Shown piece after piece: positions 24,781 to 53,619 of a DNA stretch of 64,000 bases (positions within the stretch are counted from its first letter, which is position 1; every line of letters begins with the position of its first letter). Origin of the DNA: a virus; the IMG/VR virus record IMGVR_UViG_3300008266_000015; one strand, 5' to 3'. The notes under the pieces are model-generated. The model was not told the DNA's origin, did no database searches, and saw nothing but the letters and a program-made list of their open reading frames with translations. The translations under genes and the position numbers were made by a program.

Positions 24781-25224
24781 ATGTGGTTATATAAAGACAA
24801 AGTTATAGAAAATACAGAAGACATTCCTGAAAACACATTTGGTTTTATATATGTAACAACCCATATACCAACAGGTATATCTTATATAGGTAAGAAATCT
24901 TTAATTCACAATGTAAAGAAAAAACTTACTAAAAAAGAATTAATCGAACAAACAGGTCCTGGTCGTAAACCAACTAGTAAAGTTGTCCAAAAGGAATCAG
25001 ATTGGAAAACATATTATGGTTCCGCAAAACCAATACTCGAGCTGTTAAAAGCAGGAAAGCACTCAGAATTTACACGCGAAATACTACAGTTTGTTCCTAA
25101 TAAAAAGTTATTAACATATTATGAGTGCAAGTATTTATTTAAATATAGCGTGTTAGAACATTCCAATAAATATTTTAATGACAACATTTTAGGAAAATTT
25201 TTCACAAAAGACTTTTTAAACTAG
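24781..25224 (+). CDS. GIY-YIG family nuclease
   Basis: GFIY...SYIGKK...WKTYYGS. Confidence 0.8.
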   Translation: MWLYKDKVIENTEDIPENTFGFIYVTTHIPTGISYIGKKSLIHNVKKKLTKKELIEQTGPGRKPTSKVVQKESDWKTYYGSAKPILELLKAGKHSEFTREILQFVPNKKLLTYYECKYLFKYSVLEHSNKYFNDNILGKFFTKDFLN

Positions 25225-26195: not shown

Positions 26196-26962
26196 GCAAA
26201 ATTAAGCATTCATATGATCGAATTTTAGAAATATCTGACGACCATAAACAAATTACATTGCCTGATTCCAGGTATTACAGACGAAATGGTGAATATTACC
26301 CTTCAGTAACATATGTATTAAACTTATATCCTAAAGGGAAATTTTTTGAAGACTGGTTAAAAAAAGTAGGTTATGCTTCTGAATATATCGTTAAAAAAGC
26401 ATCTGAAGAAGGTACTCAAGTACATGAATTATGTGAAGCATATTTAAATGGTGAAGAATTATATTTTCTATCTCACTCAGGAAAACCCCAACATCATCCA
26501 GATGTATGGCAAATGTTTTTACGTTTTGTAGATTTTTGGGAAGAATTCACTCCAAAATTAATTGAAACCGAAGTACATTTATTTTCAGATGAACTTAAAG
26601 TAGCAGGAACCTGCGATTTAATTGTTGAAATAAACGATAAATTATGGTTGTTAGACATTAAAACATCTAACCAAATGCATTCAACTTATGAACTTCAAAC
26701 CGCGGTTTATGGTCAATGTTATCAAGAATGCTATAATAAAAAGGTAGATCATTATGGAATATTATGGTTGAAATCATCCAAACGTAAATCATCAAAAGGT
26801 AAAATGCAAGGCAAAGGATGGGAAATTTTAGAATCAGAAAGAACATTTGAAGAAAACATTGATATCTTCAAAACTATTAAAAAACTATTTGATTTAGAAA
26901 ATCCTACAGCCTCTCCATCATTCGAGTCATTTAGAACTACTGTAAAACGAAAAGATCTATAA
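26192..26962 (+). CDS. PD-(D/E)XK exonuclease
   Basis: YPSVT, GTQVH, AGTCDL, LLDIKTS, QTAVY. Confidence 0.85.
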   Translation: MSKIKHSYDRILEISDDHKQITLPDSRYYRRNGEYYPSVTYVLNLYPKGKFFEDWLKKVGYASEYIVKKASEEGTQVHELCEAYLNGEELYFLSHSGKPQHHPDVWQMFLRFVDFWEEFTPKLIETEVHLFSDELKVAGTCDLIVEINDKLWLLDIKTSNQMHSTYELQTAVYGQCYQECYNKKVDHYGILWLKSSKRKSSKGKMQGKGWEILESERTFEENIDIFKTIKKLFDLENPTASPSFESFRTTVKRKDL

Positions 26963-26970: not shown

Positions 26971-26982
26971 ATGAGAGAGAAT

Positions 26983-27012
26983 TGGGATTCCTAAATTCTT
27001 TTTTGTATATTA
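26983..27012 (+). promoter_or_regulatory. Early-type promoter
   Basis: TGGG-N19-TATATTA. Confidence 0.65.
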
Positions 27013-27017
27013 ATATT

Positions 27018-27815
27018 ATGATAAAACTTACTCAACTATTACAAGAAGCACTTTCTAAACCCAAAGCCATAATCATGGCGGGAGGTGCTTCAGTAGGTAA
27101 ATCCACGGTACTTAAATCTATTGATCCTATAGTTAAAGATTTTGACAATCTAAACGCAGATAAATATGTTGAAGATAAAGATTCTCCAATGTATAGAAAT
27201 TTATCTGCTGCATCTACTCAAATTAGAAAAAAAGATTTACCAAACGCTATAAAAAATCAAAAAAATCTTATTTACGACACTACGGCCTCTAATTTATCTA
27301 CTTTACAACCAATTCTAGATGAATTAAATAGTAATGGGTATGAAACCATGATGATTATGGTTTATGCCCATCCTGTTGTTTCATTTCTAAGAAATTTTAA
27401 ACGTGAACGTAAAGTACCAGCTGTAGGTGTTTTAGGAACATGGGCTAATGTGTATAACTTATTAGACGAATATAAAAATATATTTGGTGATAAATTTATA
27501 TTGGTAAATTCTCCATCTGGACCTGAAGAACAAAAAGAAATAGCCAATTTTGAAAAAGCATACCAAGATGGCAAACTATCAGAATACTTTAATAGTTTAT
27601 TATCTACAGGAGAATTCGCTTCTACTTTTAAAAAAGATGATACAACTCTATCTCCTGAAGAAAAAGAAAAAAGAGAAAAACAAAGAGAAAATACTCGTAA
27701 AACATTAGAAAAAAATATTGAAAAAATTTCTACCACATATGGAGATATTCAATCTAAATTAGACCCAATTGATAGTAAAGAGTTGCCTAATATTGTTAAA
27801 AACTTTGTTAAATGA
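27018..27815 (+). CDS. Zeta-toxin/AAA_33-like P-loop kinase with N-terminal head-targeting-like peptide
   Basis: MIKLTQLLQE|...AIIMAGGASVGKST...NAD...YDTT...RNFKRERKVP; start moved to the ATG at 27018, downstream of the promoter. Confidence 0.75.
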   Translation: MIKLTQLLQEALSKPKAIIMAGGASVGKSTVLKSIDPIVKDFDNLNADKYVEDKDSPMYRNLSAASTQIRKKDLPNAIKNQKNLIYDTTASNLSTLQPILDELNSNGYETMMIMVYAHPVVSFLRNFKRERKVPAVGVLGTWANVYNLLDEYKNIFGDKFILVNSPSGPEEQKEIANFEKAYQDGKLSEYFNSLLSTGEFASTFKKDDTTLSPEEKEKREKQRENTRKTLEKNIEKISTTYGDIQSKLDPIDSKELPNIVKNFVK

Positions 27816-29755
27816 ATTTTTTAGTTAGAGAACTTATACAACCTATATTAGAGGACTTTCAAATTGAAATGCCCCAATCTAATGAGGTAGTAGCTTTGTT
27901 TGGTGGTGGATTTAAACCACCCACAAAAGGACATTTTGATGTTGTTAAACAAACACTTGAAAACCACCCAAATATAACTGAATTTCAAATAGCAATAGGA
28001 GGAGGTACTCGAGACGGTATCACTCCTGAAATGTCTATGAAAATCTGGGAAATATACAAACCATTACTTTCAGATAAAGTAAAGTTAATTTCAACTTCAT
28101 CTCCACTTACATATATTAAAGACTATATCAAGGAAAACTCAGATACAGAAATATATGCTGTGGTGGGTGCTAGAGAGGGAGATGAACAAGATGCTAAAGA
28201 TTTTGAACAACGTAAAACTCTATATAAAAAATACGGAAATAAAGTTACTGTTTTAAAATCAGAAGCCGAAAACAGCATTAGTGGAACTAAAGCACGTAAG
28301 GCACTATCTGATAATAATTTTGAGGAATTTATAAAATATTTACCTAGTGAATTAGATTCTGATACCCAACAACAAGTATGGAGCATTTTAGGTAAAGAAA
28401 AAATAGAGGAAATGTCTCAAATGGCTATCCAATCAGTTGAAGATTTTGCGGATAAAGAATTAAACCCACTAGACATAGAATTTACCAGTCATTTCTTTGA
28501 TAGATTAGTAGATCCTAGAAACATTAAGCCTATTTCATCAGCTGAACTTATTGGGTTTTTTAAACGCTTAGCTAAAAAGAAAAAACAATTATTTGATTTT
28601 CTTTCTAAATATAAAGAAATAGTAGCCACAGATAATCGTACAGATATTAATATACCACTGGTTAAGCAAGCAAATACTGCTATTGCTAAAACTATAATGC
28701 GTAAAAAAGATTTCAAAACACCTGATCCTAAAATTGAATTTAGTGAGAGTTTAAATGAAAGTGTAAACGATTCATTTGATGATTCTTTAAATTCATTAAT
28801 CAGATATATGGTTGATCAAGGTATGGATATTCAACCATTACCTACATTAAAAATCATAGACAACGATGTAGAAAACGCTAATAACGTTTTAGGTAAAACA
28901 GCGTACTACGATCCAAATAATTGTTCTATAACGCTTTATACGCTGAATAGACATCCAAAAGATATATTACGTTCATTTTCTCATGAAATGATTCATCGTA
29001 TTCAAGATAATGAAGGTAGATTAAATAATGTAACTACTAATGATACTAATGAAGATGGAGATTTACCTGAATTAGAAAGAGAAGCATATTTAAAAGGAAA
29101 CATGACATTTAGAAATTGGGAAGATTCAATTAAAAATCAAAAATATATTAGAGAATATAAAGAGTATGCTTTAAATGAACTATTTGAAAAAGACTTACCT
29201 AATATAGAAAAATTAAATAGTGTAGAGTATTTAGTAAGCAATGGAGATGATATTGAAGCAAAATATTATTTTAGATTAGATGAACCTGATTTAAATAAAT
29301 GGTCAATACATTGGAATTTTACAAATAATAACAAAAATACATCTCCTGAGGCTTGGAAACAAATAACTACTACCTCATTTAAAATATTAAAAGATTTTAT
29401 AAATAATAAAAAACCAAACTACATTTCTCTCTCAGGGAATGAAAATAAAAGTGGTAAAAATGCTAAACTAAACATATATAAATCTAAATCATTTTTAGAA
29501 AAACTTGAAAATATATTTAATAATCAATATTTAATTAAAAATGATGATGAATCTATGGTTTTAATGAAATCAATAGAAGAAGCATATAAGTATGCCATAA
29601 ATGAAAGTGTTAAGTATGGTGGAGAAAAATATGAAGATGTTTTATATTATTGGCAAAATTTAGATATAAATTCTAAAAGTAAAATAGAACGTTGGAATGC
29701 CACTAAACGTAAAGTGAAAAGAGAAGTTTTACAAGAAATTTACCAAATTAAATGA
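27812..29755 (+). CDS. Multidomain protein: HxGH nucleotidyltransferase, HFFDR domain, HExxH zincin-like domain and C-terminal domain
   Basis: FGGGFKPPTKGH...ISGTKAR; FTSHFFDRLVDPRN; RSFSHEMIH...EREAY. Confidence 0.75.
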   Translation: MNFLVRELIQPILEDFQIEMPQSNEVVALFGGGFKPPTKGHFDVVKQTLENHPNITEFQIAIGGGTRDGITPEMSMKIWEIYKPLLSDKVKLISTSSPLTYIKDYIKENSDTEIYAVVGAREGDEQDAKDFEQRKTLYKKYGNKVTVLKSEAENSISGTKARKALSDNNFEEFIKYLPSELDSDTQQQVWSILGKEKIEEMSQMAIQSVEDFADKELNPLDIEFTSHFFDRLVDPRNIKPISSAELIGFFKRLAKKKKQLFDFLSKYKEIVATDNRTDINIPLVKQANTAIAKTIMRKKDFKTPDPKIEFSESLNESVNDSFDDSLNSLIRYMVDQGMDIQPLPTLKIIDNDVENANNVLGKTAYYDPNNCSITLYTLNRHPKDILRSFSHEMIHRIQDNEGRLNNVTTNDTNEDGDLPELEREAYLKGNMTFRNWEDSIKNQKYIREYKEYALNELFEKDLPNIEKLNSVEYLVSNGDDIEAKYYFRLDEPDLNKWSIHWNFTNNNKNTSPEAWKQITTTSFKILKDFINNKKPNYISLSGNENKSGKNAKLNIYKSKSFLEKLENIFNNQYLIKNDDESMVLMKSIEEAYKYAINESVKYGGEKYEDVLYYWQNLDINSKSKIERWNATKRKVKREVLQEIYQIK

Positions 29756-30288
29756 AATATAAATTAACAGACATATATAAGCAAATTAGGGAAGAGGAAA
29801 CAGCTGCCCAAGTAGCACAATATAAAATATTTTGTGATATGGATGGCGTGTTATGTGATTTTGATAGACGATTTGAACAATTTGGAGGAATGTCTCCTAA
29901 AGAATACGAATCAAAATATGGCATTAAAGAATTTTGGGAACTTATAGATAAAAAAATAGGTGTTCAATTTTGGTCTAAAATGCCATGGATGTCTGATGGT
30001 AAACAACTTTGGGACTATATTAAAAAATATAACCCATCTTTACTCTCAGCTCCTTCTAGAGAAGCATCTTCTCGCTATGGAAAACATTTGTGGGTAAAAG
30101 AAAATATACCTGGGACTAAATTAATTTTAGCAAATAGAGAAAAGAAAAAAAATTATTCTGGAAAAAATCGAATACTTATCGACGATCGCCCTGATAATAT
30201 TAATGAATGGAAGGCCACAGGAGGTATAGGTATTTTACATACTTCAACATCAAATACAATTAACGAATTAAAGCAACTAGGATTATGA
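29752..30288 (+). CDS. HAD 5'(3')-deoxyribonucleotidase (NT5C-like)
   Basis: CDMDGVLCDF, LSAP, LIDDRPDN. Confidence 0.85.
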   Translation: MKYKLTDIYKQIREEETAAQVAQYKIFCDMDGVLCDFDRRFEQFGGMSPKEYESKYGIKEFWELIDKKIGVQFWSKMPWMSDGKQLWDYIKKYNPSLLSAPSREASSRYGKHLWVKENIPGTKLILANREKKKNYSGKNRILIDDRPDNINEWKATGGIGILHTSTSNTINELKQLGL

Positions 30289-30935
30289 AATATCAGTACA
30301 AATTGGTAAAAGAAAATGAAGGTGAAGAAGAAGTTAGTGGGTTAAAAGGTATACAATCTCAAAATGAATTAGTATTAACAGCCTTAGAAGGACGTACTGC
30401 TAAAGAACTTCTTGATATTATCAATGATCCTGCTAACCTGGATAAAGTATATGCTAAAGAAGCTTCTGGACTAAAAGATATCAAAATTAAAGTATTTGGT
30501 GATATGCCTAATGCTCGTTATAAATTAAGTGATAACATTGCTATATATAAGGAAAATGGTACTTCTCTTTATTCTAAAATAGAAAATGCAGTTGGTGCAA
30601 AATTTGATAGAAAAGGAGCCGAAATTAACAAAGACAAAGCCGGTAACATTCGGTTTATTTTTCCTAAAAATAGTAAATATAATGTAGATTTAGTAGAAAA
30701 ATATTTTAACAGTATGGATAGTGGTGAAAAATCTAGAAAAGCAGATTTACGACCTAAAGAAATAGATGAACTTACATTAAGATTTCCATTAAGTGATGGT
30801 CCAACTCTTAGAAAAATATTAGATAATGCAAATTTAGAATCAGGTAAAGATTATAAATTAAGTAAACAAGAAGCAATACAAGAAAATTTACGTACTTTAG
30901 TTAAAAAAGAAATATTAAAGTTTTATAAAAAATAA
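30285..30935 (+). CDS. Hypothetical, putative internal head protein
   Basis: N-terminal KLVKE, C-terminal IQENLRTLVKKEI. Confidence 0.7.
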   Translation: MKYQYKLVKENEGEEEVSGLKGIQSQNELVLTALEGRTAKELLDIINDPANLDKVYAKEASGLKDIKIKVFGDMPNARYKLSDNIAIYKENGTSLYSKIENAVGAKFDRKGAEINKDKAGNIRFIFPKNSKYNVDLVEKYFNSMDSGEKSRKADLRPKEIDELTLRFPLSDGPTLRKILDNANLESGKDYKLSKQEAIQENLRTLVKKEILKFYKK

Positions 30936-34976: not shown

Positions 34977-35684
34977 ATGGAACGTATTAAACAACTTATT
35001 CGAGAAGTACTTTCTACTCCACCCAAGAAAGAATCATGTAACTGTGGTTGCCATTCTTGTGAAAACGTAGGAAATAAAGGTCCAGTTCTAAACGAAAGCT
35101 TAAATGCTAAAATCGTAATGACTGAAAACATGAAATATCATGTTGACAACAGATTACCACTTACAGAAAACACATTTCGTTATGGCTCACAAGCATTCTT
35201 AGATTTATGGGCTGAAGCTCGTTATCTATATTCTCGTAATGCTATTCATGTAAATGATGACGATAAAGAAATTTTACTTGAAACTAATTTAGGTGAATAC
35301 GGAATGTATGAAGGTAAAAAAGTGCCTTTAGATTTACCTATGTTAGAAGATGATTCATTAGCGGCTGATGAAGAGGAAATAGCTGACGAACCTATATCTG
35401 AAACTGATAAAAAGAAAAACCCACCAATTGGAAAACCAAAACGTGGTGGTTCTAAAAAGTTTTATGTATATGTTAGAGACAAAGGTAAAATTAAAAAAGT
35501 ATCATTCGGGGGAACTACCGGATTGTCTGTTAAAATAAATGATCCTAAAGCAAGACAAGCTTTTGCCGCTCGCCATAGATGTGCTCAAAAAACAGATAGG
35601 ACAAAACCTAGTTATTGGTCATGTAGAATCGGTCGTTATTGGAAGCAATTAGGAGGAGCAAAAAACTTTAGCGGATATTGGTAG
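34977..35684 (+). CDS. Putative internal head protein with basic C-terminal domain (DUF5754-like)
   Basis: KKFYVYV...KKVSFG...FAARHRC...YWSC; N-terminus MERIKQLIRE. Confidence 0.7.
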   Translation: MERIKQLIREVLSTPPKKESCNCGCHSCENVGNKGPVLNESLNAKIVMTENMKYHVDNRLPLTENTFRYGSQAFLDLWAEARYLYSRNAIHVNDDDKEILLETNLGEYGMYEGKKVPLDLPMLEDDSLAADEEEIADEPISETDKKKNPPIGKPKRGGSKKFYVYVRDKGKIKKVSFGGTTGLSVKINDPKARQAFAARHRCAQKTDRTKPSYWSCRIGRYWKQLGGAKNFSGYW

Positions 35685-35701
35685 GAAATCGGCCTTACCA
35701 A

Positions 35702-35709
35702 TATTTATA
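35702..35709 (+). promoter_or_regulatory. Late promoter motif TATTTATA
   Basis: Upstream of the homing endonuclease. Confidence 0.65.
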
Positions 35710-35721
35710 ATAAAATAAAAT

Positions 35722-36348
35722 ATGGCGTATGTTTATATTGTAATCAATAAAGTTAATGGGAAAAAATATATTGGTTCCTCTCGAAAATCCCAAATAGATG
35801 AAAATTATTATGGTAGCGGCAAAGCAGTAAAAGATGCTCTAAAGAAATATGGTAAAGAAAATTTTATAAGAGAAATACTGTGGGAGGGTGAAGGAAATGC
35901 TCGCGATATAGAAACATGTTATTTAATAAAATTTAATGCTTCTAAGAATCCAATGTTTTATAATATGACTAATGATGCTAGAGGAAATGATCTTCATAAA
36001 GAAGAAACAAAACTCACTGTTAGTGAAAAACTAATTGGGAGAAAATTTACGAAAGAGAGATGTGACAAAATATCTAAAGCTAAGAAAGGATCCACAACCT
36101 CTAAAAAAGGCAAACCTGATGGCCCCAAACCAGGAGTATCAGAAGCTCATAAAGGTAGAATTAGTCCTAATAAAGGAAAAGGAAATCAAGTAGCTTTATA
36201 TACAATATCTGAAGAATATATCAGAACTTATTCTAGTTACTATGACCTAGCTATTGATCTCCAAATAAATCCAGAAACAGTAAGATGTCAACTTATTGGA
36301 AAATCTCAAACTATTAAAAATAAGCAATATAAAGCGCAATATGTATGA
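35722..36348 (+). mobile_element. Free-standing GIY-YIG homing endonuclease with NUMOD-type DNA-binding repeats
   Basis: AYVYIVINKVNGKKYIGS...YYGSG...FYN; KISKAKKG and SEAHKG repeats; C-terminal HTH. Confidence 0.8.
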
Positions 36349-36363
36349 TAGAAATGTGGTAAT

Positions 36364-36741
36364 ATGAAACTATTAGAACTTAAAAAACTTATTCAAGAAG
36401 AACTACGTATAATACGTGAAAGTTCTGCTTCAAAACTTTATAAAGTAGAAGGACTATTAGTAACAAATACTGATAAAAAAACACAATCCCAAATACTTTC
36501 AGATATTAGATCAATCCCAGGTATCACAACAGTAGATGCTCAAGAATATACTCCTCGTTTACCTAAAAAAGGATACACATACGATAGATTAACCATCAAG
36601 GTTGATCCATACCCATACATTAAAAAAGACGGTAAATTTGATATAGAAACGATTAATCAAGTAATCGCAAGTATTGGTGGGATTAAAGGAATAGTTAAAT
36701 TTAGAGTTGATAACCCCCAATTAATTAATATTGGGATATGA
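36364..36741 (+). CDS. Putative internal head protein
   Basis: MKLLELKKLIQEELRIIRE leader; ferredoxin-like/ACT-like body. Confidence 0.7.
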   Translation: MKLLELKKLIQEELRIIRESSASKLYKVEGLLVTNTDKKTQSQILSDIRSIPGITTVDAQEYTPRLPKKGYTYDRLTIKVDPYPYIKKDGKFDIETINQVIASIGGIKGIVKFRVDNPQLINIGI

Positions 36742-37121
36742 TTAAGTTAATTAATCTTCTAGAACAAATTCTTCAAGAGAAAGCTGATCGCTGTAAGCGT
36801 ATTGCTGATCGTAAGTACGATAAACCATCTGCTTACAAATCAGGTGCTATCGTTAGATGTCGTAAAGGTAATATTTGGAAGGATTTAAAAGAAGAAGAAT
36901 TAAATGAAAAAGTAAAAGAAACACTTCGTACTTGGTTTAAACGTAAAGGTGCACCAGGTAAAGAAGGCGGATGGGTTGATTGTAATACTTGTAGAGACGG
37001 AAAATGTAAATCATGTGGTAGAAAAGAAGGTGAAAAACGTTCTAAATATCCTTCATGTCGTCCTACACCAGCTCAATGTAAAACACCTGGTAAAGGTAAA
37101 AAATGGGGGAAAACAAAATGA
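36738..37121 (+). CDS. Basic Cys-rich putative internal head protein
   Basis: MIKLINLLEQILQE leader; SAYKSG, WVDC, CGR and YPSCRP modules. Confidence 0.75.
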   Translation: MIKLINLLEQILQEKADRCKRIADRKYDKPSAYKSGAIVRCRKGNIWKDLKEEELNEKVKETLRTWFKRKGAPGKEGGWVDCNTCRDGKCKSCGRKEGEKRSKYPSCRPTPAQCKTPGKGKKWGKTK

Positions 37122-37387
37122 AAAAAGAATTTAATATAACTGAGTGGGCACTCAAAAATAGACTAAAAGAACATGAAGGTGAAGAATATCCTCCTTACAT
37201 GTATTCACCTGTAGGTTTTAGCTGCGCAGTATGTAAATATCATTATATAAAAGATGATAAACATATGTGTAAAAATAAACAATACCAAGAGTATAAAGGT
37301 ACTGCTGAATTGGTTGATGATGAAGGAAATCAAATTAAAGATCCTTCAAAATGGTGTTCAAATTGGTTTTTACCTAAAGGAGAATGA
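37118..37387 (+). CDS. HiPIP-like Cys protein
   Basis: Y...CAVCKY...C...WCSNW; ATGA-coupled start at 37118. Confidence 0.55.
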   Translation: MKKEFNITEWALKNRLKEHEGEEYPPYMYSPVGFSCAVCKYHYIKDDKHMCKNKQYQEYKGTAELVDDEGNQIKDPSKWCSNWFLPKGE

Positions 37388-37641
37388 AGCCATACACAGA
37401 CATAGAAGTTACAGACAAATATGTTATTCGTGAATTTAACGAAAATATAGATCCAATTGAGCTTCTTTGGCATCGCGATAATGAAGATCGCACATTAGAA
37501 ATAGTTGGTGAAACAGATTGGAAAATACAATTAGATAATAAATTACCAATCTTACTAGAAAGTCATATATTTATACCAAGACACGCATGGCATCGTGTTA
37601 TTAAAGGAACAGGAACATTAAAATTAAAAATATACAAATGA
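37384..37641 (+). CDS. Small cupin-fold protein
   Basis: WHRDNEDR...FIPRHAWHRVIKG. Confidence 0.7.
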   Translation: MKPYTDIEVTDKYVIREFNENIDPIELLWHRDNEDRTLEIVGETDWKIQLDNKLPILLESHIFIPRHAWHRVIKGTGTLKLKIYK

Positions 37642-38171
37642 AATCAACTGAATTAAGACAACTTATCCGCGAATCAATCAATGAATATATTCGTGAAATC
37701 GATGAAGCAGGAACAAAAGCTGGATTACAAGCTAAAATAGAAGCAACTGAAGGTGCTATTAGCAAACGTGAAAAAATGGCTAATATGGAAGGCATTGATG
37801 AAGCTTATCATGAAATGCTTGATAAAGGCAAAATGAAAGAAATTGGTAATGAAGTTAAGGCATTAAAAAAAAGTTTAGATAAATTGAAAAAACAATTAGA
37901 TAAACTTAATTCAAAAGGTACTAAAACTGAAAAACCTGAATCTGAAGAAAAAGAAATTGTTGATGAAGTAAATATTGATGAAACATTTCCTGAATCTGGT
38001 GCTCAACTAGAAGAAGATAATAATGAGGATTTACCCCCTGCACCATCAGAAGAGGAAATAGCAGCTAATCAAATATACGAAATGCTCCATATGCAAAAAC
38101 TAGCAGGTATTATTTCAGAATCTGAATATGTTGCTAAAGTAAAAGAAGTAGAAAAAGCATCTAAAAAATAA
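37638..38171 (+). CDS. Putative internal head protein
   Basis: MKSTELRQLIRESINE leader; C-terminal MLHMQKLAGIISE. Confidence 0.75.
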   Translation: MKSTELRQLIRESINEYIREIDEAGTKAGLQAKIEATEGAISKREKMANMEGIDEAYHEMLDKGKMKEIGNEVKALKKSLDKLKKQLDKLNSKGTKTEKPESEEKEIVDEVNIDETFPESGAQLEEDNNEDLPPAPSEEEIAANQIYEMLHMQKLAGIISESEYVAKVKEVEKASKK

Positions 38172-38177
38172 CATATA

Positions 38178-38257
38178 GACTGATTCATAGCCGGTCGCTC
38201 GAAAGAGACAAAACATCCTGGATCTGTGGCCCATTTTTCGAAAGAAAGGTGGGCCAC
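38178..38257 (+). other. Structured intergenic element (three hairpins)
   Basis: GACTG/CGGTC stem, CTC-GAAA-GAG, and a 14-bp stem with GAAA loop at 38226-38257. Confidence 0.55.
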
Positions 38258-38263
38258 TCTAAT

Positions 38264-38294
38264 TGGGATTTCAAAATAAAAAATTTTATATTTA
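38264..38294 (+). promoter_or_regulatory. Early-type promoter
   Basis: TGGG-N19-TATATTTA. Confidence 0.65.
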
Positions 38295-38298
38295 GCAC

Positions 38299-39660
38299 AT
38301 GAAAAAAATCGTAATCGTAGGAGCAGGTGTAGCAGGTATTAACGCTGCTACCAAATTAGTAGACAATGGATATCCAGGACATCTAATTACAGTTATAGAT
38401 AAAGGTAGCGATCCATATAATCGCTTACCTGAACAGGTAATGGAAGGCATGTTAGGAGCTGGAGGTTGGAGTGATGGTAAATTAACATACCATACTGCAA
38501 TTGGAGGAGTATTATCAAAATACTGTGGTGAAGAAAAAGCTATGGAATTAATGGATCAAGTAATTAAAAACTTTACTCGTTTCCACCCTAAACCAGAAGA
38601 AATATTTATGTCTGATCCTCAAGAGGAACCAGATTTTATTAAACCACATTTTGGACTAAGACTATTTCCAGTGTGGCATATTGGTTCAAATTATCTACAT
38701 GAAATTGCTATTAATTGGTATGCTTACTTAGCTGATAAAGGTATTAACTTTATGTGGGAAACGGAAGTTACATATATTGATTTTGATAATCCTCATGGAT
38801 ATGTGTTAATAGAAGGATTTAAAAACCAAGGTGGAGGAGAAAAAACACATTACATGACTACTGGAGATAAATTAATATTCGCAGTGGGGAAGAGTGGTAT
38901 CGACTTTGGTAAAGCACTAGCAGATGAATACAAATTACCAACTGAACCTAAATCAGTGCAAATAGGTGTACGTTTTGAAGCACCACAAAAATATTTTCAA
39001 AAATTAATTGATGTATCATACGATTTTAAATTATATCAAAAATTCGATAACGTATCTCTACGTTCATTTTGTACAAATAATAATGCAGCTTATGTGGCTG
39101 TTGAGAACACTTATGGGGATGTAAGTTATAATGGACATGCTAAGAAAGGCGAAGAATATCGTAACGATATGACTAACTTTGGTATCCTAATGGAAATTAA
39201 AGGTATTGAAAATCCATTTGAATGGAGTAGAGAATTAGTTTCTAAAATCCAAATTGATAGTAAAGGACTATATTATTCTCCTTCCCGTAAACCAGGACAA
39301 ACATCAGAAGGAAATATAGTAACAGCTACTCCAATAAGTTTAGATGGGTTAACTCATTTAATTGAACCTTCATTTAATGGTTATTTCAAATATGTATGGG
39401 ATTTTATACAAAATATGAATGAAGTATTTGAATTTGGTGATGATTGGGGAATGTATATTCCTGAGGTAAAATATTTATCTCCTGAACCATTAGTTGATTA
39501 CAAGAATTTAGCATTAGTAGACTATCCAAATGTACACTTTGTAGGTGATGCTTTATCTGCTCGTGGTATTACAGTAAGTGGAGCACATGGAATTTATGTT
39601 GCAGAAAATTTACTACAACATAAACTTGATGAATATCCAGATTTTGTAGAACATTATTAA
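38299..39660 (+). CDS. FAD-dependent oxidoreductase (COG2509-like)
   Basis: IVGAGVAG Rossmann motif, GAGGWSDGKL, GVRFE, RSFC, FVGD. Confidence 0.85.
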   Translation: MKKIVIVGAGVAGINAATKLVDNGYPGHLITVIDKGSDPYNRLPEQVMEGMLGAGGWSDGKLTYHTAIGGVLSKYCGEEKAMELMDQVIKNFTRFHPKPEEIFMSDPQEEPDFIKPHFGLRLFPVWHIGSNYLHEIAINWYAYLADKGINFMWETEVTYIDFDNPHGYVLIEGFKNQGGGEKTHYMTTGDKLIFAVGKSGIDFGKALADEYKLPTEPKSVQIGVRFEAPQKYFQKLIDVSYDFKLYQKFDNVSLRSFCTNNNAAYVAVENTYGDVSYNGHAKKGEEYRNDMTNFGILMEIKGIENPFEWSRELVSKIQIDSKGLYYSPSRKPGQTSEGNIVTATPISLDGLTHLIEPSFNGYFKYVWDFIQNMNEVFEFGDDWGMYIPEVKYLSPEPLVDYKNLALVDYPNVHFVGDALSARGITVSGAHGIYVAENLLQHKLDEYPDFVEHY

Positions 39661-39679
39661 ACTTTACTATAATTCATTA

Positions 39680-39687
39680 TATGTATA
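39680..39687 (+). promoter_or_regulatory. Late promoter variant TATGTATA
   Basis: One mismatch to the motif, in the expected position. Confidence 0.5.
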
Positions 39688-39709
39688 ATAAAAACATATT
39701 TAAAACAAA

Positions 39710-40375
39710 ATGGAATTAAGAAAATACATCCGCGAAATGGTTGAGACTGAGCTTGATGAAATGGCTCGTATCTCTACTAACATCAAAATTGGTGATCCTG
39801 AAAAAGCATCCATTGCAAAAGAGCTATATGCTGGAACTTGGTATGGTGATATGATTGATTATGTAGAGGAAGCAGGAGACGTTGGTATTCCTCAACCTGA
39901 ACTAGCAAGAATGTTAGGTAAATCAGGCCAACAAGCAATCAATCCCAAAGTTAGAGATTTCCTTGAATCAAACATCTTCACTAAAGGTGAGTTATCAGTA
40001 GCTAAAAAAGAAAAACCAGAAGCTAGTGGTATTAAAGGTCGCCCAACCTCAGAAAAAACATTAATGGCTAAAGATGTTAATTCTAAAATGGAAGCAGATG
40101 CTAACTATAAACCATCAGAAGATGAATTAGCAATATTGGGGGCTGAGTTTATTGAAAAACTTAGAGCACGTGTTAAAGGTACTTTAAGACGTGGTCGTCC
40201 TGCACTTCCTTCTAAAGCAAAAGATGGCATGATAGCAGCTATGAAAAAAATAGGAGATGAAGATATAGACATGGATGGGGATATTGATGATGAGGATTTG
40301 GAAGATATTGCTGAATCAACTTCAATTAATGAATCGTTTACTCGTATGCAGAAATTAGCAGGAATTATTAAATAA
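39710..40375 (+). CDS. Putative internal head DNA-binding protein (wHTH plus AT-hooks)
   Basis: Leader MELRKYIRE; GIPQPELARMLG; KGRP and RRGRP; C-terminal FTRMQKLAGIIK. Confidence 0.75.
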   Translation: MELRKYIREMVETELDEMARISTNIKIGDPEKASIAKELYAGTWYGDMIDYVEEAGDVGIPQPELARMLGKSGQQAINPKVRDFLESNIFTKGELSVAKKEKPEASGIKGRPTSEKTLMAKDVNSKMEADANYKPSEDELAILGAEFIEKLRARVKGTLRRGRPALPSKAKDGMIAAMKKIGDEDIDMDGDIDDEDLEDIAESTSINESFTRMQKLAGIIK

Positions 40376-40399
40376 ATTATATTAAACAAATTTTAAATT

Positions 40400-40429
40400 G
40401 AGGACTTGGATTACCAAGTCCTCTTTTTT
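40400..40429 (+). terminator. Intrinsic terminator overlapping an early promoter
   Basis: GAGGACTTGG-ATTA-CCAAGTCCTC-TTTTTT. Confidence 0.75.
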
Positions 40430-40435
40430 ATATTC
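40406..40435 (+). promoter_or_regulatory. Early-type promoter
   Basis: TTGG-N19-TATATTC. Confidence 0.65.
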
Positions 40436-40455
40436 AAGTAAAAAATTAAAGTTCT

Positions 40456-40689
40456 ATGAGTAATAAAAAAACAGACATTAGACGTATTAAATCCCCAGAT
40501 GGGATTGTTCGTTATATTAAAGATGGAAAATTACATAATGCAGAAGGTCCTGCGGTAATTCATCCTGATGGTAGAGAAGAATATCATTTAAATGGTTTTC
40601 AATATTCAAAGGATGAATTTAAAACAATTAAAAAAGATAGTAATGGATTACCATTCTATAAACAATCAGGAACTAAAATGCGCCATTAA
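40456..40689 (+). CDS. Small protein with MORN-like GKLHxxxGPA unit
   Basis: DGKLHNAEGPAVIHPDG...YHLNG. Confidence 0.7.
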   Translation: MSNKKTDIRRIKSPDGIVRYIKDGKLHNAEGPAVIHPDGREEYHLNGFQYSKDEFKTIKKDSNGLPFYKQSGTKMRH

Positions 40690-40690
40690 G

Positions 40691-41221
40691 ATGAAGATTG
40701 GATTCACAGGTACAGTAAGTGTGGGAAAAACTACATTAGTTAATTCACTAAAAGAATTACCAGAATTTAAACACTATGATTTTGCAACTGAACGTTCAAA
40801 ATATTTACGTGATTTAGGTATTCCCCTAAATACAGATAGTACATTAAAAGGACAAACAATTTTTCTATCAGAGAGATGTTCTGAGTTAATTAGACATAAT
40901 ATTATAACTGATCGAACAGTTATAGATGTTATAGCATTTACATTAAATGCCGATTCGATTGATTATTTAAATAAAGATGCGTTTGAAAAATATGCTTCTA
41001 AATTTATAGAGGAATATGATTGGATATTTTATGTATCACCAGCTGGAGTATCTATTGAAGATAATAATGTGCGTACTACAGATGGAGAATATAGAAAACA
41101 GATTGATCAAACAATCAAACATCTATGCTCAGAATATTTATGGAAAATTAAAAACTTTGGTATCATCGCTGGTACTAATGAAGACAGAATTACTCAAATA
41201 AAATCTTACTTGAATTTATAA
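40691..41221 (+). CDS. P-loop nucleotide kinase (NadR/AAA_28-like)
   Basis: MKIGFTGTVSVGKTT, TDRTVID, EDNNVR; true start is the ATG at 40691. Confidence 0.8.
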   Translation: MKIGFTGTVSVGKTTLVNSLKELPEFKHYDFATERSKYLRDLGIPLNTDSTLKGQTIFLSERCSELIRHNIITDRTVIDVIAFTLNADSIDYLNKDAFEKYASKFIEEYDWIFYVSPAGVSIEDNNVRTTDGEYRKQIDQTIKHLCSEYLWKIKNFGIIAGTNEDRITQIKSYLNL

Positions 41222-41229
41222 TATTTATA
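41222..41229 (+). promoter_or_regulatory. Late promoter motif TATTTATA
   Basis: Recurrent motif. Confidence 0.7.
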
Positions 41230-41244
41230 ACAAAATCTTACTAA

Positions 41245-42075
41245 ATGAAACGCAAAGAACTATATAACTATATTCGTGAAGAAATTGTAAATGAGTTAAC
41301 TACTGTTACTAAAAATACTGATCAAAGTGAAGTTTCAACAATTTCTAAAGCAGAAAATGTACCTACAACTACCGTTTCTAATGCTATTAAGAAAGCCAAA
41401 TCATCCGGTCAAGATGTAAATATAGCTGAGATGGCTCGTACTGCAAATAATATTAAAATTGGAGACCCAGCTAAAGTAACTCTACTTAGAAAATTATATG
41501 GTGGAACATGGAAAGGAAATATGTTAGATGCAGTAGAAAAAGCAGGTGAAGCAGGTATTTCTCAACTTGAATTAGCTTTAGCAGTTGGTAAAAAAAGTCA
41601 ACCCGAAATTAATCCTGCCGTAAACGAATTTCTTAAAGTAGGTGCGTTTGCATTATCTAAAATTGCAGGTGCAGCCGCAGAACCAACTATTGCTCCTTCA
41701 TCTGAAGAAGAAGAATGGATGGCGGACGCTGATGTACAAGATGATTGGGAAAAAGTTGAAGATGAAGATGAAGATATAATGGATAAAGGTCCATCAGCCG
41801 CAGATATCAAAGCAGCTGAAAAATCAGTTAAGAAAGTAGCAGGTGGTAAAGGATACGCTAAACAATTACCTCCTGAAGATGAAGAAAAATATGAACGATT
41901 GAAAAAGGGAATTGAAACTAAAATCTCCAAAATTAAGGCTCTTCAAAAACCCAAAAGAGCATCATCAAATGATATGCAGGTACTTAAAGCTTTAATTAAT
42001 CGAGATGATGTTAAAAAACTATTTAAAGCTAAAGGTGTTAGTATAACTGACTTAGTAGCAGATATCATATCATGA
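41245..42075 (+). CDS. Putative internal head wHTH protein, paralog of 39710
   Basis: MKRKELYNYIREEIVNE leader; EMARxxxNIKIGDP domain shared with 39710. Confidence 0.75.
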   Translation: MKRKELYNYIREEIVNELTTVTKNTDQSEVSTISKAENVPTTTVSNAIKKAKSSGQDVNIAEMARTANNIKIGDPAKVTLLRKLYGGTWKGNMLDAVEKAGEAGISQLELALAVGKKSQPEINPAVNEFLKVGAFALSKIAGAAAEPTIAPSSEEEEWMADADVQDDWEKVEDEDEDIMDKGPSAADIKAAEKSVKKVAGGKGYAKQLPPEDEEKYERLKKGIETKISKIKALQKPKRASSNDMQVLKALINRDDVKKLFKAKGVSITDLVADIIS

Positions 42076-49818: not shown

Positions 49819-50436
49819 ATGAAGCCATTACTTATAGAAGTCACCCCATTCAATGTATCACCTAAATCACTTACTGAGTCTCGTGATAGGATATCTGGCA
49901 ACCCAATAGTTGAAGGGATATTAGCTACCTGTGAAGTAAAAAATGGTAATGGTAGATATTATGCTAAAGAGTTATGGGAACGTGAGATAGATAAGTATAT
50001 GGATATGGTTAGAGAAAATAGAGCTCTAGGTGAACTAGACCATCCAGATTCTCAAATCATTAACTTAAAAAATGTCTCCCACAATATTAAAAAAATATGG
50101 TGGAAAGGAGATATGGTAATGGGTGCAATTGAAATTCTACCTACACCATCAGGAAATATCCTTAAAGCATTAATTGAATCAGGTATTAAGGTAGGTGTTT
50201 CATCTCGTGGAATGGGTAGTTTAAAACAAGTAGGTGAAGTATTAGAAGTACAAGATGACTTTGAACTACTATGTTTTGATTTTGTTTCCACACCTTCAAA
50301 TCCAGGTTCATGGATGCATCCTGTAGGACAAATACATGAGGGATTATCTACATCAATTAATTCAAACCCCTATTCTAAAGTTAATTCTATACTTACTGAA
50401 ATACTTTGTTCAAACGGTACTTGTCCAATATTTTAA
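49819..50436 (+). CDS. Prohead core protease (T4 gp21-like)
   Basis: KNGNGRYY, ALGELDHP, GVSSRGMGS, DFVSTPS; start at MKPLLIE. Confidence 0.95.
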   Translation: MKPLLIEVTPFNVSPKSLTESRDRISGNPIVEGILATCEVKNGNGRYYAKELWEREIDKYMDMVRENRALGELDHPDSQIINLKNVSHNIKKIWWKGDMVMGAIEILPTPSGNILKALIESGIKVGVSSRGMGSLKQVGEVLEVQDDFELLCFDFVSTPSNPGSWMHPVGQIHEGLSTSINSNPYSKVNSILTEILCSNGTCPIF

Positions 50437-50918: not shown

Positions 50919-51893
50919 ATGGCAACAAACAGAGATTTGCTTAAAGAAGCAATCGCGGACGCTAAATCTGTTAAAGAAACAGCAATAGCAAACGCAAAAG
51001 CTGCTCTCGAAGAAGCATTCACTCCGTATCTTAAGGAAAAACTCTCCGCTAAACTCCAGGAAATGGAAAACGAAGAGGAAATTAAGATGGAGGAAATGTA
51101 TGAAGATGAGACAGAAGAAATGAAAGAAGAAAAAGAATCTATGGATGAAATTTCATTAGATGAACTTCTTGCTGAACTTGAAGATGAAGAAATAGAGGAA
51201 TCTATTTTCGAAGCTAAAGAGGAAGAAGAAGAATCCGAAGAAGAGGAATCTGAAGAGGAAATGTCTATTGAAGACATGGATGAAGATGATTTGAAATCTT
51301 TCATTGAAGATGTTATTAAAGACATGGTAGCTGCAGGTGAACTTGAAGCTGGTCATGAAGGTATGGAAAATGAAGAAGGTGCTGAAGAAGAAATAGATGC
51401 TGAAGAAGAAGAAATTGATGAAGAAGTTAATCTTGATGAACTTTTAGCTGAAGAAGAATTAGACGAAGAAATTGGTCTTGATGAACTTTTAGCTGAACTT
51501 GAAAGTGAAGAAGTTTATGAAGAAAAAGACAAGATGCAAGAGGAACTTGAAGAAGCTTATGAGGCAATCAAAACTCTTAAATCAGAACTTAACGAAATCA
51601 ATTTGTTGAATGCTAAACTTCTTTACACTAACAAAATCTTCCGTAATAAGTCTTTAACCGAGTCACAAAAAGTAAAGGTTTTAACAGCATTTGATAAAGC
51701 TACGTCTAAAAAAGAAGCACAATTAGTATATGAAACTCTATTAGAGAATTTGAAAACACCAGTTAAAAAATCTCCAATTCAAGAGTCATTAGGTTCCGCT
51801 TCTAAAGCATTAGGTACAGCTAAATCAACACCAATTATCGAAAACGATGCTTTCTCACGTATGCGTGAATTAGCATTCGGAAACAAAAAGTAA
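50919..51893 (+). CDS. Prohead scaffolding protein (gp22-like)
   Basis: Very acidic coiled coil between protease and MCP; C-terminal FSRMRELAFG. Confidence 0.85.
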   Translation: MATNRDLLKEAIADAKSVKETAIANAKAALEEAFTPYLKEKLSAKLQEMENEEEIKMEEMYEDETEEMKEEKESMDEISLDELLAELEDEEIEESIFEAKEEEEESEEEESEEEMSIEDMDEDDLKSFIEDVIKDMVAAGELEAGHEGMENEEGAEEEIDAEEEEIDEEVNLDELLAEEELDEEIGLDELLAELESEEVYEEKDKMQEELEEAYEAIKTLKSELNEINLLNAKLLYTNKIFRNKSLTESQKVKVLTAFDKATSKKEAQLVYETLLENLKTPVKKSPIQESLGSASKALGTAKSTPIIENDAFSRMRELAFGNKK

Positions 51894-51933: not shown

Positions 51934-53619
51934 ATGAGTTCAATCAATCAATTACTCGAATCCGCTAATCCGTGGAAATCACTTCAAAGTGATGCCGCTA
52001 GATTAGCAACCAAGTGGTCTAAAACAGGCTTACTTGAAGGCTTCGGTTCAGAGGTAGAAAAAAACAACATGGCTCTTATCCTCGAGAACCAAGCAAAACA
52101 ATTAGTAGTAGAAACTAGTCAAACTGGTGCTTCTCCAACTGCTGGTACATTTACTGTTGGTCAGTCTGAAAACTGGGCAGGTATCGCTCTTCCATTAGTA
52201 CGTAAAGTATTCGGATCGATTGCTGCTAAAGAATTCGTTTCTGTACAACCAATGAATTTACCTTCTGGACTAGTATTCTTTCTAGATTTCCAATACGGAA
52301 CTGATAAAAATCCATTCACATCAGGTAACTCACTTTATGGTGCTCGTAATGCAACTGGTCAATTCCCATTCCAAACAACTGGCACAACTGGTGGTTTATA
52401 TGGTGAAGGTCGTTTTACTTATTCTACTAACCAATTTTCATCATCTTTTTCAAGTTCATTAGCAGGTTACTCTGCTAATTCAGCTTCTTGGGCAGAAGTA
52501 AATTTTGATTCTGCTCTATCAGCATCAGCAGCAGCTTCAAGAATTATTAAAGTAACAGTTCCTACATCAGCTTCAATTTTAAGTAATTTTGATCCAGATG
52601 CAGTTAGAGGATTTGTATTAACTTCAGGTTCAAATTTCCCATTAGCTGGTACTTTACCTGCCTTTACTTCTTATAACTACACAGCTAACACTATTGCATT
52701 CTTTTTCACAGCCTCTGGAATTCCAGCAGCTGGTTCAACTTGGTTGATAGAATACAATAAAATTACAGCTGATAATAATCGTGGTGATTTTGAAGATACA
52801 ACTTCTCCTTCATTCTCAGTTCCAAATGCTGAAAGTGCATCTACAATTGTTATTCCAGAAATCAACATCAAGATGCAATCACAAGCGATTGTTGCTAAAA
52901 CTAAAAAGTTGAAAGCAGTATGGACACCTGAATTTGCTCAGGATCTTAACGCTTACCAGAACATCGATGCTGAAGCTGAATTGACTAACGTAATGAGTGA
53001 ATACATTTCAATGGAAATTGATTTAGAAATTCTTGATATGTTGATCGAAGATGCTGCAGCTGGAACAGAAGTATGGTCAGCTGTAAACAATCAATTTATT
53101 GATTTTGCTACAGGTACAATTACTAATGCTGCTGTAAGTAATAATGGATTCTACAACACTCAAGGTGGATGGTTCCAAACTCTTGGTACTAAAATGCAGA
53201 AAATTTCTAACAAGATTCACCAATTAACACTTCGTGGTGGTGCTAACTTCTTAGTATGTTCTCCAACAGTAGCAACAGTTCTTGAATCAATCCCAGGATT
53301 TGCTGCAAATACTAATGGTGATGCTGCAAACATGGAATACGCAATGGGTGTTCAGAAAGTAGGTGCTATCAATAACCGTTATACAGTTTATAAGAACCCT
53401 TATATGACTGAAAACGTTATCTTGATGGGATTCCGTGGTAAACAATTCCTAGAAACAGGTGCTGTGTTTGCTCCATATATTCCATTGATCATGACACCAC
53501 TTGTGTACGATCCAGCAACCTTCACTCCACGTAAAGGTTTAATGACTCGTTATGCTAAGAAAATGTTACGTCCTGAATTCTACGGTAAGATCTATGTTAG
53601 TGGTTTGAATACCCTATAA
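51934..53619 (+). CDS. Major capsid protein (T4 gp23-like)
   Basis: VQPMNLPSGLVF, KLKAVWTPEFAQDL, FAPYIPL, GLMTRY. Confidence 0.95.
   Translation: MSSINQLLESANPWKSLQSDAARLATKWSKTGLLEGFGSEVEKNNMALILENQAKQLVVETSQTGASPTAGTFTVGQSENWAGIALPLVRKVFGSIAAKEFVSVQPMNLPSGLVFFLDFQYGTDKNPFTSGNSLYGARNATGQFPFQTTGTTGGLYGEGRFTYSTNQFSSSFSSSLAGYSANSASWAEVNFDSALSASAAASRIIKVTVPTSASILSNFDPDAVRGFVLTSGSNFPLAGTLPAFTSYNYTANTIAFFFTASGIPAAGSTWLIEYNKITADNNRGDFEDTTSPSFSVPNAESASTIVIPEINIKMQSQAIVAKTKKLKAVWTPEFAQDLNAYQNIDAEAELTNVMSEYISMEIDLEILDMLIEDAAAGTEVWSAVNNQFIDFATGTITNAAVSNNGFYNTQGGWFQTLGTKMQKISNKIHQLTLRGGANFLVCSPTVATVLESIPGFAANTNGDAANMEYAMGVQKVGAINNRYTVYKNPYMTENVILMGFRGKQFLETGAVFAPYIPLIMTPLVYDPATFTPRKGLMTRYAKKMLRPEFYGKIYVSGLNTL

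Follow-up and report, generated by a model that had tools for sequence, protein, structure and literature searches.

Three kinds of phage protein are already known with which the subject of this study can be compared, a trio of coupled genes for a kinase, a nucleotidyltransferase and a HAD nucleotidase in a 64,000-nucleotide stretch of viral DNA (here called the window) from IMG/VR record IMGVR_UViG_3300008266_000015: the tagged internal proteins of phage T4, the polyvalent proteins of phages and conjugative elements, and the virion-associated cytidylyltransferases of cyanophages. In T4 the tagged cargo comprises three small internal proteins, one of them a restriction inhibitor, and Alt, a protein-modifying enzyme. 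The T4 capsid-targeting sequence corresponds to residues 1-10 of IPIII, with positions 4 and 7 important for targeting and gp21 cleavage depending on positions 8 and 10 (PMC9026906); apart from the tag, the only thing they share, the internal proteins form a diverse set with defence functions (PMC3012670). For polyvalent proteins, cutting by the zincin module has been proposed (Iyer et al. 2017, PMC5512222). Among the cyanophages, S-SZBM1_140 is the one enzyme detected by liquid chromatography-mass spectrometry (LC-MS) in the purified virions of its phage (PMC9146016), and the cytidylyltransferase of S-CREM2 (ORF154) was detected in purified virions by the same technique in a study that remarks on how often kinases and cytidyltransferases turn up in cyanophage virion proteomes (PMC10665884).

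The window belongs to a low-GC (~30%), T4-like phage and encodes a large terminase, a portal, a prohead protease of the Peptidase_S77 family and a Gp23-type capsid protein; the host is a member of the Bacteroidota, and Flavobacterium phage immuto is the closest cultured relative. The trio stands downstream of the genes for a DnaG-type primase and a PD-(D/E)XK exonuclease. Its coupling by ATGA, claimed in a preliminary description, is seen as overlaps at 27812 and 29752, and because another ATGA occurs at 30285, a fourth gene is coupled as well, for which family searches gave no match.

We consider it fairly probable that the three enzymes are synthesised late, enter the prohead, undergo trimming by a T4-type prohead protease, and are ejected with the DNA into the next host cell, where they would carry out nucleotide chemistry. 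Each protein would begin with a short amphipathic propeptide ending in [LI]xE, that of the kinase representing a 10-residue capsid-targeting sequence of T4 style; docking to the scaffolding core would be the task of the tag, and the S77 protease would then cut behind the Glu. The middle protein would probably be cut by the same protease at [LI]xE between its four modules as well, and its built-in zincin peptidase may cut these junctions instead or additionally. As to substrates, the best guess is small adenine- or pyridine-type nucleotides or a dinucleotide cofactor, which would be phosphorylated, adenylylated and dephosphorylated. What appears to be new is the conserved coupled kinase-transferase-nucleotidase unit as putative tagged cargo, the decapeptide shared in Bacteroidota phages, and the modular transferase with its protease-type junctions and zincin module.

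Leaders, late-type signals and head machinery

The kinase leader, with L4, L7, L8 and E10, fits the T4 rule of hydrophobic residues at positions 4 and 7, Leu or Ile at 8 and Glu at 10. Among 23 kinase orthologues E10 never varies, only L or I occurs at position 8, and residues 11-15 are variable. In the kinase model (pLDDT 90) the leader forms a low-pLDDT helix followed by a variable linker, and translation is taken to start at ATG 27018, with TTG 26982 unused, because MIKL is the conserved start among relatives. The same decapeptide can stand on two unrelated enzymes: in 10 of 33 distinct kinase/HAD pairs the first ten residues agree at 7 or more of 10 positions, and in some pairs at all ten, with synonymous nucleotide differences only. 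In this window the HAD leader MKYKLTDIYKQIRE is a 14-residue variant ending in IRE, and the transferase leader MNFLVRELIQPILE, likewise a 14-residue variant, has ILE at residues 12-14, where [LI]xE is aligned in 40 of 45 homologues. Across the window, the pattern [LI][RKQ]E with its last residue at positions 7-16 is found in 10 of 78 open reading frames, compared with 1.8 expected (P = 1e-5); the ten include the kinase, the HAD, the scaffold candidate and a run of genes at 34977-41245. The earlier statement that each protein of the trio has an [LI]xE leader therefore holds, kinase and HAD belonging to the enriched set and the transferase by virtue of its ILE.

The features of T4-type capsid targeting, a propeptide pattern of ~10 residues accompanied by an S77 protease and a scaffold candidate, are present together (Table 1), and the Gp23-type capsid gene matches at 3e-75. 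The likeness to IPI, IPII, IPIII and Alt thus extends from the tag, carried by cargo proteins that are unrelated except for it, to the S77 protease, the scaffold candidate, the capsid gene and late-type expression. The differences lie mainly in the putative cargo, which here consists of three nucleotide-chemistry enzymes from one translationally coupled operon, one of them a four-module protein with candidate inter-module cut sites and a zincin domain of its own; furthermore, the tag here reads MIKLTDLLKE, that of T4 MKTYQEFIAE. The capsid protein itself (51934-53619, 561 residues) has ~300 residues ahead of its Gp23 domain, since the latter is confined to residues 302-552. T4 gp23 loses a 65-residue propeptide.

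Late expression is suggested by the motif ATATTTATAA, of which the window holds 11 exact copies, all on the + strand and all intergenic, where 2.9 were expected and 11 were reached in 0 of 100 shuffles. The ten copies other than that ahead of the trio (window 2968, 11874, 18290, 22146, 32139, 35701, 41221, 46122, 57444 and 62549) lie from a few to ~25 bases ahead of + strand gene starts and are followed by baseplate, tail and head genes; taken together, the copies likely represent a map of the late transcription units. Upstream of the kinase gene, AATATTTATA is invariant among relatives. The tandem promoters of the preliminary description find counterparts here as putative elements, the late one (given as 26963) in the conserved and enriched ATATTTATAA copy at 26962, and the 'early' one (26983) in the 9/12 sigma-70-like match at 26982-27011. 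The TTGG and TATATT blocks of this second site are conserved among relatives, TATATT being invariant, which fits a host-type promoter. Between the AATATTTATA and TATATT blocks (window 26972-27011), an alignment of 12 relatives (A6) contains a conserved hairpin with five compensatory pairs, which may serve to end transcription of the replication genes or to regulate the operon.

Further support comes from the cyanophages. The transferase family profile matches the transferase of Pelagibacter phage HTVC008M and S-SZBM1_140 with 93-94% hhalign probability; these two are 33% identical to each other, and homologues of the former are annotated as 'cytidyltransferase' in 565 phage records, mostly from cyanomyophages. 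Several begin with a T4-style tag, MKKFSAFLSE and MKKFSAFLKE in Syn9 gp184 and P-SSM4_155 and MRFRQFIIE in S-SZBM1_140. The cyanophage proteins (S-SZBM1_140, S-CREM2 ORF154, Syn9 gp184, P-SSM4 T4-GC190) thus share with the window protein the PP(H/T)xGH transferase type and the tag, to which a similar genome neighbourhood in HTVC008M and the detection in virions of two phages can be added. They differ in lacking the zincin module and in having a DUF6267 (KxDG) neighbour, no kinase or HAD being seen adjoining; they resemble the window protein only remotely (pairwise E 0.004; hhalign 93%), and any HIGH enzyme might score alike by profile. The gene that precedes the transferase in Kyanoviridae has the motif K-(W/Y)-D-G-A-P-A, which is like ligase motif I (L086:4709-5902, L091:297-1259, L092:351-1277, L084:3245-4477); the two copies of this gene that were run against Pfam are DUF6267.

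Packaging is well supported, though indirectly, because the leaders have T4-like geometry, an S77 protease is encoded, a late-type motif precedes the trio and cyanophage homologues occur in virions; since its proteins start with the kind of tag that serves for head loading in T4, they are probably injected with the DNA. Gene order, motifs, leaders, the protease gene and the late motif are direct observations; packaging, which is likely, is inferred, as are cleavage and ejection. The virion-delivered kit proposed in the preliminary description gains indirect support from the same observations, including conserved leaders on enzymes that are unrelated, and may be retained in this form.

Several findings weigh against such delivery. 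The trio adjoins replication genes, and a promoter-like site of host type stands before it; the looser short motif [LI]xE occurs at 22 of 78 N-termini in the window, compared with 10 expected; leaderless relatives exist, namely the nucleotidyltransferase of loci L073-L078, which starts at strand 1, and the HAD of L062; the link to the cyanophage family is remote, as described above; and the S-CREM2 authors caution that abundant proteins may co-purify with virions (PMC10665884). The HAD homologue of phage Cr30 lies among nucleotide-metabolism genes, between NrdAB (ribonucleotide reductase) and dCMP deaminase, and the fold of the kinase, favouring polynucleotide kinases, speaks against a purely small-molecule pathway. 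One may therefore envisage ordinary intracellular enzymes of nucleotide metabolism, unpackaged and adjusting pools during replication, whose N-terminal helices serve folding, oligomerisation or translation start and whose [LI]xE is incidental. The position behind primase and exonuclease genes, the host-type site, the metabolic setting in Cr30, the wide occurrence of HAD homologues in phages without T4-type heads and the chance frequency of [LI]xE all agree with this. It is hard to reconcile, however, with one decapeptide on two unrelated enzymes whose DNA differs only synonymously, with an invariant Glu10 in the kinase, with a conserved late-type motif, and with canonically tagged cyanophage homologues in virions. 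Moreover, HAD homologues in metabolic contexts have no leader: those of Cr30, Atu_ph07, phiCbK and Xoo-sp13 begin at the catalytic strand without an N-terminal extension, and since the Cr30 protein stands in a metabolic setting, the HAD leader can be seen as a context-specific add-on. We regard the intracellular explanation as unlikely.

Table 1. Window coordinates of the trio, its signals and modules, and the head genes and neighbours considered
Feature	Position	Strand	Basis or remark
Late-type promoter motif ATATTTATAA	26962..26971	+	directly past exonuclease stop codon
Host-type promoter-like site TTGGGA-18-TATATT	26982..27011	+	9/12 sigma-70-like match; overlaps conserved hairpin
P-loop kinase, 265 aa, zeta/polynucleotide-kinase clade	27018..27815	+	Pfam Zeta_toxin, PDB profile, fold, invariant catalytic motifs
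Kinase leader MIKLTQLLQE, residues 1-10, candidate capsid-targeting propeptide	27018..27047	+	T4 tag rule, conservation
Nucleotidyltransferase, (T/H)xGH type, four modules, 647 aa	27812..29755	+	motifs, profile, model
Transferase leader MNFLVRELIQPILE, residues 1-14	27812..27853	+	model helix, [LI]xE in homologues
Module a, HIGH-superfamily adenylyltransferase-like, residues 26-192, TKGH + ISGTKAR	27887..28387	+	fold, profile, invariant residues
Module b, small alpha/beta, HFxDRxxDxRN motif, weakly RegB/RelE-like, residues 203-310	28418..28741	+	sub-threshold Pfam
Module c, zincin-like metallopeptidase, HEMIH + downstream Glu, residues 322-456	28775..29179	+	invariant residues, weak Pfam
Module d, variable C-terminal domain, residues 464-643	29201..29740	+	close relatives only
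NT5C-type HAD nucleotidase, 178 aa, leader MKYKLTDIYKQIRE of 14 residues	29752..30288	+	Pfam NT5C, phrog_2643, motifs
Fourth gene coupled by ATGA, 216 aa, varying between relatives	30285..30935	+	close relatives only
Zn-ribbon protein without leader, 189 aa	30939..31508	+	after HAD in nearly all loci and immuto; 39-98% identity
Prohead protease, T4 gp21 type, presumed processing enzyme	49819..50436	+	Pfam Peptidase_S77 1e-30; phrog_207 3.7e-58
Candidate scaffold protein, N-terminus MATNRDLLKE	50919..51893	+	between protease and Gp23-type capsid gene; LLKE ends at residue 10

The trio among related phages

A scan of viral contigs (IMG/VR) with the kinase yielded 80 loci from uncultured relatives, in which the order primase, exonuclease, kinase, transferase, zincin module, HAD, Zn-ribbon protein is held down to 41% kinase identity. 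Unlinking of the genes in related phages, which would have spoken against the preliminary description, was thus not seen among these about 80 relatives. The borders between the proteins are less fixed than the gene order: the transferase may stand alone next to a zincin-HAD fusion (L040 type), transferase, zincin module and HAD may form one protein (L065), and the HAD is fused at the C-terminus of P0066 and P0101. Immuto has a HAD and a transferase-zincin protein whose N-terminus carries an additional Pol-beta-like domain, and no kinase homologue was found in this phage. Two candidates for the missing kinase, immuto gene 182 and the N-terminus of gene 183, both proved to be unrelated, the latter looking like a Pol-beta-type transferase. 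This extra N-terminal domain of ~290 residues, with a GS...DxD pattern like that of Pol-beta-type nucleotidyltransferases, precedes the HIGH transferase in some homologues, immuto gene 183 included (L001:6252-7120; N-termini of P0021 and P0070).

Outside the Bacteroidota phages, HTVC008M has a kinase, a 596-residue TxGH transferase and, four genes on, a HAD that is 38% identical, and in Methylophilales phage Melnitz the kinase adjoins the HAD. The trio is thus conserved as a unit in T4-like phages from different phyla. A far-reaching extension, which we put forward as speculation and think rather doubtful, would be that T4-like phages of several phyla inject a ready-made three-enzyme pathway, making or destroying one nucleotide cofactor or defence signal within the first seconds, before phage expression, and that the portable decapeptide together with the [LI]xE junctions constitutes a general loading and release rule for many enzymes from polyproteins.

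Should the tags function as they do in T4, sequence alone would suffice to recognise the proteins that uncultured T4-like phages inject. The unusual cargo, a linked set of nucleotide-handling enzymes, would then point to an unrecognised step in the first minute of infection by abundant freshwater and marine phages, and would explain why 'cytidylyltransferases' and kinases recur in cyanophage virion proteomes; tag and junction sites could also be reused for loading foreign enzymes into phage heads. A separate leader-bearing protein of the window (34977-35684; see also L084:7438-7839) starts with MERIKQLIRE, an exact fit at positions 4, 7, 8 and 10. Its C-terminal part is 55% identical to the product of the gene right after the HTVC008M transferase and hints at a wider shared cargo set.

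The three enzymes and their possible substrates

Judged by their residues, all three enzymes are intact and nothing looks dead: the catalytic motifs are invariant in the kinase and in the transferase protein and intact in the HAD, so that catalytic inactivation, a second way in which the earlier proposal could have failed, was not observed.

The kinase matches Pfam Zeta_toxin at 2e-12 (47.4 bits; cut-off 22.3). Walker A, the N-x-D-K-Y-V-E-D-K-D block with the catalytic Asp (D48), D-T-T and R-E-R-K-V-P are invariant among the 23 orthologues. D48 aligns with the catalytic Asp of PezT, and three residues further on the kinase has Val, where the aligned Pnkp1 and PezT sequences have Arg. By VIA the best fold match is the Pnkp kinase of Clostridium thermocellum (Z 14.5, root-mean-square deviation 3.0-3.2, 161 of 171 residues), followed by phosphoseryl-tRNA kinase (PSTK, 13), zeta toxin (11.8), AvrRxo1 (11.7) and T4 PNK (11), the margin of Pnkp kinases over other P-loop kinases being 1.5-3.5 Z. 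Foldseek, ranked by E-value, places zeta and PezT on top for the same model. The sequence profile searched against the PDB gives Pnkp1 at 0.002 and PezT at 0.0025, and the single sequence finds Pnkp1 at E 0.16 and little else. Hence the Pfam match, Walker A and catalytic Asp expected of a zeta/PezT enzyme are present, and the combination of a closest zeta/PezT fold with a GDxFR-type substrate Arg is not, the fold part of this statement coming from VIA alone and Foldseek giving the opposite. Because VIA, Foldseek and the sequence profile are split between Pnkp and zeta/PezT, the kinase is assigned to the zeta/polynucleotide-kinase clade as a whole. Of the earlier label 'zeta/AAA_33-like P-loop kinase', the P-loop and the above-cut-off Zeta_toxin match stand, and the clear likeness to zeta does not, given the lead of the polynucleotide kinases (Z 14.5 vs 11.8). 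A search for fused kinase forms turned up one chimeric protein, which was uninformative, and the literature on virion proteomes containing zeta-like kinases offered nothing useful.

The second gene has a weak Cytidylyltransferase-like match and also matches phrog_3041 ('cytidyltransferase'). Its motif is TKGH in this phage and HKGH in relatives, and ISGTKAR is present. Among 49 homologues (H/T)xGH, the Arg of ISxTxxR, and HExxH with the downstream Glu of the third module are all invariant; within module a this applies to G32, P37, G40, H41, W79, Y82, P98 and R162. The fold of module a is closest to PPAT (Z 16.1, root-mean-square deviation 2.7, 154 residues), above every NMNAT (NMNAT/NaMNAT 13-14.4), and its PDB profile is headed by the archaeal NMNAT MJ0541 (5.5e-7), with PPAT at 2.5e-6; as a single sequence against the PDB the transferase gave no match. 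A Trp that seemed to match the nicotinamide-binding residue of archaeal NMNAT was dropped, as the aligned segments are not structurally equivalent.

The HAD matches Pfam NT5C with 26.7 bits (cut-off 24.8), the cap region being covered, and phrog_2643 at 4e-29; HAD_SAK_2 is matched weakly (0.035). Both the DMDGV and the IDDRPD motif are intact; DMDGV and DD have aligned counterparts in the mitochondrial enzyme, and the 5' nucleotidase of immuto is 43% identical. It had been described beforehand as an NT5C-like HAD phosphatase, and with NT5C above its cut-off and HAD motifs I and IV in place this assignment is confirmed. Two of the three enzymes, the capped NT5C-type HAD and the transferase of PPAT/NMNAT class, point to a small-molecule pathway, polynucleotide ends being left open by the kinase only, and action on small nucleotides or a dinucleotide cofactor is tentatively preferred, at low confidence, to action on RNA or DNA ends.

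The alternative that the fold of the kinase calls to mind is an end-healing kit like T4 Pnkp, in which tRNA or DNA cut by host defences would be repaired by a 5' kinase together with a 3' phosphatase, helped by the transferase. Not only is the C. thermocellum Pnkp kinase the nearest fold by VIA, with PSTK next and T4 PNK further down, but the kinase profile also matches Pnkp1 at the E 0.002 given above; the weak HAD_SAK_2 match and the KxDG-bearing DUF6267 gene adjoining the transferase in Kyanoviridae point the same way. The trio further resembles these enzymes in its acid phosphatase chemistry of the DxDx(T/V) kind, and bacterial Pnkp likewise has an adenylyltransferase module. The phosphatase does not follow: it is of the capped NT5C type, which acts on mononucleotides, rather than the capless Pnkp type, a point on which the earlier link of kinase plus HAD to T4 Pnkp chemistry is not supported. 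A capless DxDxT phosphatase together with a ligase partner was not found, the transferase is of HIGH rather than ligase type, the three activities are encoded by separate genes, and the Arg three residues past the catalytic Asp of Pnkp1 and PezT is replaced by Val. Gene content was examined in four complete related genomes, where an Rnl2-type RNA ligase occurs in one of four, so that there is no consistent ligase partner, and KxDG-bearing DUF6267 in none of these four immuto-like relatives, compared with three of three Kyanoviridae as positive control. To our knowledge, enzymes of the PPAT/NMNAT class do not seal ends. An end-healing role therefore appears improbable.

A second alternative is a NadR-like supply of NAD+, in which a nicotinamide riboside kinase and an NMN adenylyltransferase would act together with a HAD that converts NMN and the riboside into each other, so as to counter a NAD+-depleting defence. 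That phages synthesise NAD+ to counter defence is established (PMC9503650), the annotation of the immuto homologue reads NMNAT/NadR, and the NMNAT/NaMNAT structures at Z 13-14.4 and the archaeal NMNAT as top profile match are in keeping with it. The (H/T)xGH and ISxTxxR motifs and the HIGH fold of an NMN/NaMN adenylyltransferase are indeed present, but neither the pathway partner nor the closest fold is, as Nampt was found in none of the four complete relatives and PPAT outscores every NMNAT. The kinase, moreover, belongs to the Zeta_toxin family and not to that of the NadR kinase, and an NMN phosphatase would oppose it. NADases give nicotinamide and ADP-ribose, not the riboside. We hold such a supply pathway to be distinctly improbable. 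Of the targets suggested in the preliminary description, both NAD+ depletion and tRNA-cleaving defences consequently lose ground, because the relatives are without Nampt and mostly without RNA ligase.

For the favoured small-molecule action, the closest parallels in chemistry are NadR, CoA synthase (PPAT plus dephospho-CoA kinase) and PAPS synthase, where a HIGH-class or related nucleotidyltransferase is paired with a P-loop kinase according to the chemical logic of the synthesis of phosphorylated ADP-linked cofactors. Here the kinase is of the zeta/Pnk clade, a nucleotidase is added, and the setting is viral and marked by late expression and tags.

Modules and junctions of the transferase protein

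The model of the transferase protein (pLDDT 83) has four modules with low-confidence linkers between them: a leader helix (2-15) and a disordered stretch (17-22) are followed by the transferase (26-192), an alpha/beta module (203-310), a disordered linker (311-320), a helical-plus-sheet HExxH module (322-456) and the C-terminal module (464-643). The whole 647-residue model gave matches to the transferase domain only, both in Foldseek and by VIA. Module b is linked to RegB solely by its match to Pfam REGB_T4 (8e-4, below cut-off; 3 of 13 members), and its profile found no sequence match in the PDB, RegB not being recovered; it is a separate gene in immuto and Melnitz, forms the end of another protein in phiM12, and follows the zincin module in L078. 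In module c, H76, E77, H80, Q83 and E107 (numbering of alignment A4) are invariant, and Pfam points weakly yet consistently to small zincin families (DUF6782 in 8 of 18 members, Peptidase_M91 in 6, MPTase-PolyVal in 2, E 0.018); the profile found no peptidase in the PDB. Among relatives this module is always joined to a nucleotidyltransferase or a HAD. Module d is missing from forms of 418-444 residues and is swapped elsewhere for DUF6934-type or other modules.

Between modules a and b, [LI]xE is kept in 35 of 46 sequences, for example as KIEE, and it is conserved ahead of the zincin module as well, as LNE or ISE; both sites coincide with low-confidence linkers of the model. This pattern agrees with cleavage by the S77 protease, and a role of the zincin module in the cleavage is another possibility. 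The designation 'HxGH nucleotidyltransferase polyprotein' used earlier is in line with the (T/H)xGH motif, the [LI]xE at module junctions, and the differing shuffling and fusion of modules among relatives. The linker motifs PYGSGY/F and KDPFGINQYARELAQGLEE recur between modules in P0045, P0066 and P0101 (alignment A2) and may be a second junction or processing signal.

The four-module model, and the gain, loss and reordering of modules among relatives, correspond to the architecture of polyvalent proteins, which in the available survey text likewise combine several unrelated domains with a zincin-like peptidase in an order varying between orthologues and are predicted to be delivered with the DNA (PMC5512222); the possible BECR/RegB-like module would be a further common trait. 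It has thus to be considered whether the middle protein might be polyvalent in the classical sense, its own zincin and not the prohead protease cutting it after delivery, with the kinase as a zeta-like toxin that phosphorylates a cell-wall precursor and so aids entry. The intact HExxH+E domain with its constant attachment to nucleotidyltransferase or HAD, the typical domain shuffling and the above-cut-off Zeta_toxin match would suit such a protein, and zeta-like kinases are reported from polyvalent proteins in the same survey text. It is less well suited by the weak MPTase-PolyVal match, by the conservation of prohead-protease-type [LI]xE between the modules, in keeping with the S77 protease, by the small size of the proteins here (400-1100 residues), and by the rank of zeta and PezT under the polynucleotide kinases by fold (VIA); HIGH-type nucleotidyltransferases are not among the polyvalent domains listed in the available part of the survey, nor does a HAD appear in that text (PMC5512222). 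Release by the zincin after delivery, combined with a toxin-like kinase, accordingly seems a poor candidate for the explanation.

Away from the trio, a SegE-type GIY-YIG homing endonuclease (Pfam 6.6e-25) is encoded at window 24781-25224, between a structural gene and the primase. The PHROG family of this gene is labelled 'NAD synthetase', which looks like a mislabelling, and the immuto record copies the label.

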